Assembly (NCBI RefSeq): GCF_054482595.1
Contig: NZ_CM137008.1
Reading direction: 5' to 3' (one strand)
Length of the DNA stretch: 64,000 nucleotides
Shown: in pieces, positions 31,911 to 61,988 of the stretch
Layout: every line of letters starts with the position of its first letter
Position numbering within the stretch: the stretch's first letter is position 1
Translations under genes and position numbers: made by a program
The notes under the pieces: model-generated
What the model was told of the DNA's origin: nothing
The model's database searches: none
What the model saw: the letters and a program-made list of their open reading frames with translations, nothing else

Positions 31911-32071
31911 ACATTAAACAATTTGTGCCAGCTTGTTCACACTTTTATGTAAAGTTACCCTTAACAACTTAAGGGTTTTCAAATAGATAGACATATATTT
32001 ACATCTAATATCGGAATTCTCTGCTGTTAAGGTTTGCTTAGACTTACTTGCTCCCTAAAAAGATGTTAAAA

Positions 32072-32085
32072 TTGACAAATATCAA
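32072..32085 (+). promoter_or_regulatory. FNR box in fnr promoter region (autoregulation)
   Basis: ttgacaaatatcaa fits TTGAT-N4-ATCAA, about 20 nt upstream of the fnr start codon. Confidence 0.5.
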
Positions 32086-32104
32086 TTACGGCTTGAGCAG
32101 ACCT

Positions 32105-34266: not shown

Positions 34267-34509
34267 GATGTAATCCTTGTGCAGACAAATTTCTTGTTAC
34301 CTAAACGTAACAATACCATGACATTTCACCGTTGTCTGCTCTGAAAACCTCACCTCTTAGCTGGATTTACAATCAACGCATTGATTAGTTAGCTAATATT
34401 GCTACTTACTTCCCTGACTATTGATGATCTGAATGAATTGTCGCGGTAAAATAGCCCCGCCAGGGGTTTCCGGCATGACGACAATTATCTGGAGGAGCCT
34501 GATAAAACA

Positions 34510-43732: not shown

Positions 43733-45274
43733 TTACTCTTCGTTCTTCTTCTGGCTTAAGCCATATTCCCGCAACTTATTGGCAATCGCGGTATGTGAAA
43801 CGCCGAGACGTTTTGCCAGTTTGCGCGTGCTGGGATAATTGCGATAAAGCTGGGTTAATACCGAGCGTTCAAAACGGCTGGTGATTTCATCCAGCGAACC
43901 TTCCATCGCATCTTCGCCCACGGCTACCGTTGCGGCGTCATAATCCGGCAACAAAATATCCTGTGGACGCAGCTCATAACCGTCCAGTTGTGTCAGTGCG
44001 CGATAGATAGCGTTCTTTAACTGCCGCACATTTCCCGGCCACGCATAACGCGTAAGTACAGTATTCAGGTCAGCGGCCAGTTTCGGACGCGGCACGCCCT
44101 GCTCGTCGGCAAAGCGGGCGACGAACAGCTCAGTTAACGGCATGATGTCCTGCGGACAGTCACGTAGCGGCGGCAGATTGAGCGTCAACACGTTCAGACG
44201 ATAATAGAGATCTTCACGGAACACGCCTTTTTGCACCAGTTCGACCAGATTCTTCTGCGTAGCGCAAATCACCCGCACATCGACATGCACCTCATGGTCT
44301 TCGCCAACCCGACGGAAAGTGCCATCATTAAGGAAACGCAGTAATTTCGCCTGCATCCGTGGTGACATCTCACCTATTTCATCCAACAGCACCGAACCAC
44401 CGTTCGCCTGCTCAAAGAATCCTTTCTTCCCTTCCGGAGCATGACCAAACAGTTCACTCTCGACCGCATCTTCCGGTATAGACGCACAGTTCAGCGCCAG
44501 GTAAGGTTTGCCCGCTCTGGGGCTTGCCTGATGGCAGGCGTAGGCAAAGAGATCTTTACCTGTACCTGTGTCACCCGTAATCAGCAGCGGCGCGCTTAGC
44601 ATCGCCAGTTTCTGCGCCTGTTCGACAACATGCTTCATTTTCGGGCTGACGGCGACAATTTGACTGAAGGCGCTGACGTCCTGGGCGGCGACATTTTGCA
44701 ACTGGCGGCCCATACGAATCGTTGATCGCAACATCACCACCGCACCGGTCAGGACGTGTTGATCATTTTCATCCTGAAGATAAACAGGCGTAATCTCCAT
44801 CAGGAAATTCTGCCCATTAATAACGACATGCTCGTTATGGGAATCTTGCGGTTCGCTTTCCAGCCAACGTAAAAAATTAAAGCCGTTAATCAATTGTGCG
44901 GCGGTATGGTTGCGCAGGCGATCCAATTTTTGCGCAAAAAGCTGACAGCTCGCCGGGTTCGCCATATCCACTTTGCTTTTCATATCGACAGAGAGCACAG
45001 GTTCGGGCAACGCCTCCAGTAACGCGCTCAACGCCAGATGCTCACGTTCGGAAGGCATCCACGGGACAGTACGCACATCGGTAACACCTGCAATACGGCG
45101 TATTTCGGCCATCAGACTGCTGAAACTCTCAAACTCCAGTTCAGCAAAATTGAGGTAGATTCGCCCAATGGGATCAATCTCAATACCGCGTAAATCAATG
45201 CCTCTTAGCACGAGTAGATCGAGTAATTCGCGGGTCAGACCGAGTCGGTCTTCACAAAAGACTTCCAGACGCAT
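43733..45274 (-). CDS. tyrR: Aromatic amino acid regulator TyrR
   Basis: ORF track 43733..45301; start at MRLEVFCEDRLGLTRELLD gives 513 aa; central AAA+ domain (GDTGTGKD), C-terminal HTH. Confidence 0.95.
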   Translation of the reverse strand: MRLEVFCEDRLGLTRELLDLLVLRGIDLRGIEIDPIGRIYLNFAELEFESFSSLMAEIRRIAGVTDVRTVPWMPSEREHLALSALLEALPEPVLSVDMKSKVDMANPASCQLFAQKLDRLRNHTAAQLINGFNFLRWLESEPQDSHNEHVVINGQNFLMEITPVYLQDENDQHVLTGAVVMLRSTIRMGRQLQNVAAQDVSAFSQIVAVSPKMKHVVEQAQKLAMLSAPLLITGDTGTGKDLFAYACHQASPRAGKPYLALNCASIPEDAVESELFGHAPEGKKGFFEQANGGSVLLDEIGEMSPRMQAKLLRFLNDGTFRRVGEDHEVHVDVRVICATQKNLVELVQKGVFREDLYYRLNVLTLNLPPLRDCPQDIMPLTELFVARFADEQGVPRPKLAADLNTVLTRYAWPGNVRQLKNAIYRALTQLDGYELRPQDILLPDYDAATVAVGEDAMEGSLDEITSRFERSVLTQLYRNYPSTRKLAKRLGVSHTAIANKLREYGLSQKKNEE

Positions 45275-45344
45275 GGGAACCTTCACCTGAAAAAAGAACA
45301 ATTAATATGATGATATGACACTATTTGGATAGCAGGAAGGTTTC

Positions 45345-45362
45345 TGTCAACAATCATTGACA
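45345..45362. promoter_or_regulatory. TyrR-box-like palindrome upstream of tyrR
   Basis: tgtcaa-caatca-ttgaca fits TGTAAA-N6-TTTACA with two mismatches. Confidence 0.5.
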
Positions 45363-45421
45363 CAAAGACGGAAAAACGGGCACTTCGGCGTAAAGATATC
45401 CGGTCAGCACCCGATATTGCA

Positions 45422-46483
45422 TTATTTTTCGCTGGGCGTTTTGCCTTTTTGCAGCGTTTCTTTCACCTGACCGATAAGCTGACGACGGAAATCCCCGAGG
45501 CGAGGTTTGTCATCGTCAATCCACGGCAGCGGGCGGCAAAGCTCCATAGCTTTAATCCCGAGTCGTGCCGTCAGAAGTCCAGCACCAATTCCCTGAGCTG
45601 CGCGGGTAGACAAACGAGCAGCGAGATCTTGCGACATCCAGTCCATCCCCACTTCGCGCACCAGTTCGCTGGCTCCGGCAAAAGCGATATTCAGCAATAC
45701 CAGCTTAAACAGACGCAAACGGCTGTAATACCCCAGTTCAATGCCATACAGCGTGGCGATGCGATTAATTAAACGCAGATTGCGCCAGGCGATAAACGCC
45801 ATATCGACCAACGCCAGCGGGCTGACCGCAATCATCAACGTTGATTCCGCCGCCGAACGGCTGATTTCGCGCCGCGCCTGGGCATCTAAAACTGGCTGGA
45901 CCAAATGCGCATACAAACTGACCACTTCACGGTCGTTTTGCGTTTCATGGATTGAGGCATACCAGCGTTGCAGCGCTGGATGAGACTGATCAATACCCGC
46001 CTGCTGCGCCAGTTTTTCGCAAAATGCGCGGCCTTTGCCCGTGCCGTGGCTGTGCAACAAATCGCGCGCTTCGTCGCGTTCATGGGCGCGCTGTCGCAAG
46101 CGCCATAAGCGCCGCCACTCTGTTACCACAGAACCTACGCCAGCGCCGATAATCAATGCCCCAGCGGCACATCCACCCAGCGCCACCCAGTCCTGAGTTT
46201 GCCAGGCATTCATTGTCCACTGTACACCCTGCCCGACAACGCTTGCGCCAAACAGAGCCAGCCCGCCCATCACCATTTTGCGCCACAGGCTGCGTTTCGG
46301 ACGTAACGCTGCATCCATTACCGCTTCAACTTGCCCCTCTTCTTCAGGCGCTTCATCGAGCGTGGCCGGGGCAAAATTTTGCGCCTGATTTTCGTCAAAG
46401 GTCTGCTGCGCCCTGAATTTTGGATTCTGATCGACCTCCAGCGGACCGTCGAAATCAATACGTGGTTTTAACGGTTCGGTCAT
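45422..46483 (-). CDS. ycjF: DUF697-family inner membrane protein
   Basis: 353 aa; hydrophobic segments; start overlaps ycjX stop (ATGA). Confidence 0.85.
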
Positions 46484-61777: not shown

Positions 61778-61988
61778 GTTGCCTTTCCGTGGTAGCGGTC
61801 CCATGAAACGAGAGACTACTCCGCAGAAAATAAACTGTCAATTGAGCACAAGGGTTTTAGTCACGCAGGAAATCATTTTTTACCAGGGAAAAAGCGTATT
61901 TGTGAGCTGACGCAAATAATCTATGGGGATGTAAATAAGGTGTGACAGAAAAAAAACGGCGCATAAGCGCCGCTCATGGTGAATTCTT

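Follow-up and report, generated by a model that had tools for sequence, protein, structure and literature searches.

The DNA analysed here, referred to as the window throughout, comprises 64,000 nucleotides of contig NZ_CM137008.1 (NCBI RefSeq assembly GCF_054482595.1). It is E. coli DNA. The 401 bp around the palindrome under study, in which ycjF ends and tyrR begins, have counterparts of 100% identity in many RefSeq E. coli chromosomes. The tyrR coding sequence locates to the minus strand (43733..45274, with the ATG at 45274) and encodes a protein of 513 amino acids, i.e., the regulator which binds the box described below. Its assignment is based on the open reading frame, on Pfam and on the RefSeq annotation, whereby the domains identified in the product (ACT, Sigma54_activat, AAA_lid_14 and HTH_50) are those expected of TyrR and the same DNA in RefSeq is annotated as tyrR, with ycjF located upstream. 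The ycjF reading frame ends at 45422-45424, hence the ycjF-tyrR intergenic region is 147 bp long. Within this region, positions 45345-45362 read TGTCAACAATCATTGACA, which is an inverted repeat of two perfectly matching 6-nt arms around a 6-nt spacer (TGTCAA-N6-TTGACA) and thus the palindrome that had been reported for these positions in the first-pass annotation of the window. There it was described as lying 70-90 nt upstream of the tyrR start, which agrees with the distance found here, as the palindrome resides 71-88 nt 5' of the ATG (-88 to -71). Read on the tyrR strand (minus), its sequence is TGTCAATGATTGTTGACA, which we take to be the tyrR box given in Pittard's compilations.

A strong TyrR box was defined earlier as a site possessing at least 10 matches to TGTAAA-N6-TTTACA together with an invariant G-N14-C pair (PMC4374768). 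With 10 of 12 arm positions matching and the G and C located at 45346 and 45361, respectively, the tyrR palindrome is a strong box by this definition, and the likeness to the TyrR box that had been noticed upon first inspection is therefore real. In the stretch from -350 to +30 of tyrR, no other site combines at least 8 of 12 matches with the G-N14-C pair. The exact pattern TGTCAA-N6-TTGACA occurs once in the window, with 0.01 occurrences expected, while perfect 6-N6-6 palindromes, irrespective of their sequence, are frequent (22 found versus approximately 15.6 expected). Sites deviating from the TyrR consensus at no more than two arm positions were not enriched in the window (4 versus 2.82 expected, with 28 of 100 shuffles reaching 4), and from this window count simple arithmetic gives approximately 0.0065 such matches per 147-bp intergenic region. 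For scoring, a weight matrix was built from nine other strong-type boxes of strain K-12, which had been recovered by a consensus scan upstream of aroF, tyrP, aroL, aroP, mtr, aroG and folA. The tyrR site scored 7.2 bits and ranked fifth in the window, with 5.65 equal or better sites expected by chance, a result to be read in view of the small training set, in which the C at position 4 and the G at position 15 never occur; the three top matrix matches (39495, 60007 and 34643) reside inside coding sequences. Similarity to the motif is thus by itself at chance level and would not have singled out the tyrR site, which rises above chance because of its location and its conservation and not because of sequence similarity.

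Conservation was assessed with the best 80 loci of other Enterobacteriaceae species (L002-L081), taken from one genome per species and encoding TyrR proteins of 85-99% identity, whereby this set covers Escherichia, Citrobacter, Salmonella, Enterobacter, Klebsiella, Raoultella, Kosakonia, Lelliottia, Buttiauxella and further genera. In all 80 of these species a TGT-N12-ACA site was identified, one per locus, at -84 to -99 from the ATG, and in 77 of the 80 the arms are exactly TGTCAA and TTGACA, while the spacer occurs in 11 variants. The remaining three loci, all from Buttiauxella, deviate in the right arm only, which reads TTAACA or TTCACA. Averaged over the upstream alignment, the majority fraction amounts to 0.997 in the 12 arm columns, compared with 0.907 in the spacer and 0.629 across the remaining intergenic columns, and the tyrR box is the top-ranked 6+6 window of the intergenic alignment. 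The G-N14-C pair is retained in 82 of 82 aligned sequences and in three additional genera, i.e., Cronobacter, Siccibacter and Pluralibacter, which were fetched separately and possess the same tyrR box. Invariant arms combined with a freer spacer are the signature to be expected of a dimeric DNA-binding protein. Against this background, the idea of a palindrome that arose by chance, or that serves another palindrome-binding regulator, has next to no credibility. It may draw on the 22 perfect 6-N6-6 palindromes of the window and on the non-significant motif score, but it leaves unexplained that the arms are near-invariant across 83 other species with their phasing to the promoter fixed, and that a site with 10 of 12 matches and the G-N14-C pair resides upstream of a gene known to be repressed by TyrR.

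The position of the tyrR promoter was derived from the start-site table of Kim et al. 2012 (PMC3415461 supplement), where the tyrR start is given as 1384715 in NC_000913.2, with a 5' UTR of 29 nt and a support of 4 reads. The upstream sequence listed with this start matches the window, and the start is accordingly placed at 45303 (an A, minus strand), 29 nt upstream of the ATG. The start coordinate was absent from the Cappable-seq supplementary files, and the start rests on these 4 reads from one dataset. As the start is located 7 nt downstream of a TATCAT hexamer (45310..45315, minus), this hexamer was assigned as the -10 element. In each of the 82 sequences it follows the box at an unvarying distance of 29 bp, reading TATCAT in 61 and TATTAT in 21 of them, and unlike this fixed distance the one between hexamer and ATG varies from 31 to 46 bp. 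Both box arms and the 29-bp distance to the -10 element are thus under strong purifying selection. From the -10 element and the start, a weak -35 element may be derived, namely TTCCTG (45333..45338, minus), 17 bp upstream of the -10 element and 6 bp downstream of the box. In the alignment this putative -35 reads TTCCTG, TTCCCG, TTCCAG or TTCACG with the TTC conserved, and the blocks conserved besides the box are CTTCC and TG.C.TATCAT. With respect to the transcription start, the box spans -59 to -42 (centre -50.5) and hence ends 6 bp short of the weak -35.

The palindrome departs from the TyrR consensus symmetrically, i.e., with a C at position 4 and a G at position 15, whereby both of its arms become perfect TTGACA -35 hexamers, and this departure is kept in 77 of 80 species. 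The two exchanges were found together in no other K-12 box recovered by the consensus scan, and they could reflect selection for a tuned affinity or for competition with sigma-70. A more far-reaching reading assumes that the TTGACA arm mainly serves as the -35 hexamer of a second promoter, either upstream or bidirectional, with TyrR competing directly with sigma-70. Besides the match to the -35 consensus on both strands and the conserved departure from the TyrR consensus, the wording of the title of Cornish 1986 would fit this assumption, as the title, seen in the reference list of PMC4374768, speaks of 'sites' of transcription initiation in the plural. The TTGACA arm was nevertheless rejected as the -35 element on grounds of spacing: the conserved -10 element is 29 bp away, which is too far, and nothing is conserved at 16-18 bp downstream of TTGACA, where the hexamers (CAAATA, CCAAAT) are poor. 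Moreover, a scan with the promoter consensus returned no promoter using TTGACA on either strand, the published table holds one intergenic start site only, located at -29, and the equal conservation of both arms is not required of a -35 hexamer. A second promoter of this kind is consequently judged improbable.

A further reading concerns the transcript rather than the DNA and considers the inverted repeat to act as a hairpin or a terminator when transcripts read through from ycjXF. A 7-bp stem, being part of a short hairpin, can in principle arise from the palindrome. This hairpin was rejected on account of its weak fold (-8.5 kcal/mol, z = -1.19, with 24 of 200 shuffles folding at least as well), of a stem which is A/U-rich and not followed by a U-run, and of the outcome of the terminator and Rfam searches, which gave neither a terminator call nor an Rfam match for it. 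The arms never vary, so that no sign of selection for pairing over sequence is seen, and a real terminator-like hairpin with a U-run is located upstream, at 45372-45413. We therefore give an RNA function of the palindrome almost no weight. The upstream hairpin follows ycjF (minus strand) and is formed by the stem CGGGUGCU/AGUGCCCG (45377..45413), succeeded by the U-run at 45372..45376, with a minimum free energy of -14.4 kcal/mol. Folding of single sequences revealed that its stems vary among genera yet keep their pairing, while RNAalifold, applied to an ungapped anchored alignment of this hairpin, returned no structure. A simple terminator scan missed it, presumably as its loop exceeds the 8-nt limit of the scan. 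The hairpin ends 9 bp from the TyrR box.

The reading preferred here is that the palindrome is a strong TyrR box through which TyrR represses tyrR, and we hold it with high confidence, whereby its identity with the mapped site is drawn from a secondary citation and from the uniqueness of the site. TyrR was reported to repress tyrR by binding upstream of the -35 element, with Cornish et al. 1986 cited for this (PMC4374768). The negative control of tyrR by TyrR was likewise documented in a reconstruction of TyrR regulons, where tyrR was counted among the most conserved members (PMC5343134), and strong boxes were described to bind TyrR alone, i.e., without aromatic amino acids (PMC7142922). The 10 of 12 matches, the G-N14-C pair and the position upstream of the -35 element are such that all of these literature statements fit. 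The proposal of autoregulation made for the palindrome at the outset is therefore well in line with what was obtained here, considering the near-invariant arms, the lack of any other box-like site (at least 8 of 12 matches with G-N14-C) from -350 to +30 of tyrR and the repression from upstream of the -35 element known from the literature. Neither the tyrR site sequence nor b1323 was found in the supplement of the regulon reconstruction (PMC5343134), and a full-text literature search with the box sequence gave no match. The operator as such is already known, as autoregulation via a box upstream of the tyrR -35 element was described as early as the 1980s, and the significance of the present assignment beyond a correct annotation is accordingly little. 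What is added here, besides the finding that the motif score alone would have missed the site and the lead of an upstream element described below, is the phylogenetic footprint, which consists of the invariant arms, the variable spacer and the fixed distance of 29 bp to the -10 element in 82 of 82 sequences.

From these findings and the literature, the most probable course of the repression of tyrR can be outlined. A TyrR dimer would use its C-terminal helix-turn-helix to read both arms (TGTCAA and TTGACA), in which the essential G and C are separated by 14 bp, and, going by the binding described in the literature, would occupy the box without need for an aromatic amino acid. Bound at -59 to -42, TyrR would be expected to lower initiation at the adjacent weak sigma-70 promoter (-35 TTCCTG, -10 TATCAT). 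Repression from a site centred at -50.5 may come about by blocking the C-terminal domains of the RNA polymerase alpha subunits from the upstream DNA and by crowding sigma region 4, a combination which is favoured because the box covers the stretch contacted by the alpha C-terminal domains and abuts a poor -35 element. The outcome would be a constant and modest negative feedback on the TyrR level.

Comparison with the strong boxes of the E. coli TyrR regulon (aroF, aroL, tyrP, aroP, mtr, aroG and folA) revealed that the tyrR box shares with them the 18-bp form of TGTAAA-N6-TTTACA with the G-N14-C pair and at least 10 matches, an A/T-rich spacer (in most genera) and the location within the promoter region of a gene belonging to the regulon. 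In contrast, the C at position 4 and the G at position 15 (TGTCAA/TTGACA) distinguish the tyrR box from all others among the boxes recovered. A second difference is of functional nature, as the tyrR box is located upstream of the -35 element yet represses, whereas activation is exerted from the upstream boxes of tyrP, mtr and ipdC (PMC4374768, PMC7142922). A resemblance was also seen with the aroG operator, which possesses a single box perfectly matching the consensus: at each of the two promoters one strong-type box is found and TyrR acts on a sigma-70 promoter. The aroG box, however, overlaps the core promoter (PMC4374768), whereas 6 bp separate the tyrR box from the -35 element, and repression of aroG was reported to depend on phenylalanine and tryptophan (PMC4374768). 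With the autoregulation of trpR and argR the tyrR system has in common that the gene of the regulator is a conserved core member of the regulon with an operator at its own promoter (PMC5343134). The trpR and argR products belong to other protein families and their operators to other motifs, and unlike them TyrR is a sigma-54-activator-like AAA+ protein which acts at sigma-70 promoters.

Upstream of the strong box, a second conserved element was identified at 45389-45406 (minus strand, -132 to -115 from the ATG). This candidate auxiliary weak TyrR box reads TGACCGGATATCTTTACG (TG-N-CTTTACG), starts 44 bp upstream of the start of the strong box, is enclosed by the ycjF hairpin and possesses 7 of 12 consensus matches along with the G-N14-C pair. 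It is possibly the only new item of this work. At exactly the 44-bp offset, TTTAC[GA] is present in 54 of 82 sequences, 46 of these 54 retaining the G-N14-C pair, and the element was found in Cronobacter, Siccibacter and Pluralibacter as well. With a matrix score of -2.96 it is poor, and 173 positions in the window score at least as well. Nevertheless, the strong box and this element may be considered as a two-site operator, with the element serving as a weak TyrR box at a distance of 44 bp and TyrR dimers or a hexamer bridging both sites while bending the intervening T-rich DNA, which contains a conserved T-tract. Such an arrangement would extend the main explanation and not replace it. It would be consistent with the constant offset and, moreover, with the persistence of the element where its surroundings changed, i.e., in Klebsiella despite the lack of a good hairpin, in Buttiauxella despite diverged flanks and in Siccibacter despite an additional gene between ycjF and tyrR. 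Known adjacent boxes (aroF, tyrP, aroP, aroL) are 23 bp apart, and 44 being 23 + 21, the element would share the helical phase of these pairs. Counting against a second TyrR site are the poor matrix score, the weak left arm and the clade of Enterobacter, Lelliottia and Leclercia, in which the element is lacking yet the strong box is kept. In addition, the overlap with the terminator-like hairpin could account for part of the conservation, and a box spacing of 44 bp has no precedent at the other promoters scanned. Autoregulation of tyrR is not known to depend on tyrosine, which renders the involvement of a hexamer at tyrR less plausible. On balance, a two-site operator is regarded as unlikely, though worth retaining as a tentative model. 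The same reservation applies to the broader proposal that the tyrR control region might constitute a conserved two-element module and that, separately, the symmetric exchanges at positions 4 and 15 might have been selected for a tuned affinity or for competition with sigma-70; we would advance it as a doubtful conjecture. If the upstream element does bind TyrR, the picture of tyrR as a gene with a one-box operator needs revision.

Several observations were made elsewhere in the window. A perfect palindrome, AATTGACAAATATCAATT, is located at 32070-32087, 18-35 bp upstream of the fnr ATG (32105, plus strand, verified by translation), and contains TTGAC-N4-ATCAA. The FNR consensus is TTGAT-N4-ATCAA. 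The palindrome comes close to this consensus and is presumably the autoregulatory FNR site of fnr. Another perfect palindrome, TGTTACCTAAACGTAACA, resides at 34295-34312 in the ynaI-ynaJ intergenic region, approximately 30 bp upstream of ynaJ. Collinearity with E. coli strain E2863 was found for the tyrR side of the window and not for positions 1 to approximately 20000, the counterpart of which in E2863 is a Rac-type prophage (intR, recET, kilR, sieB); judged from this comparison, the strain from which the window derives seems to carry a different prophage content there. In the pspE-ycjM intergenic region, at 61930-61947 and approximately 150-170 bp upstream of ycjM, the sequence TGTAAATAAGGTGTGACA shows 10 of 12 matches to the TyrR consensus along with the G-N14-C pair, a match which is probably due to chance, as a window of this size should contain about 2.8 of them. 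In strain E2863, ycjM (glucosylglycerate phosphorylase) and ycjT (kojibiose phosphorylase) are annotated in RefSeq as pseudogenes with internal stops.
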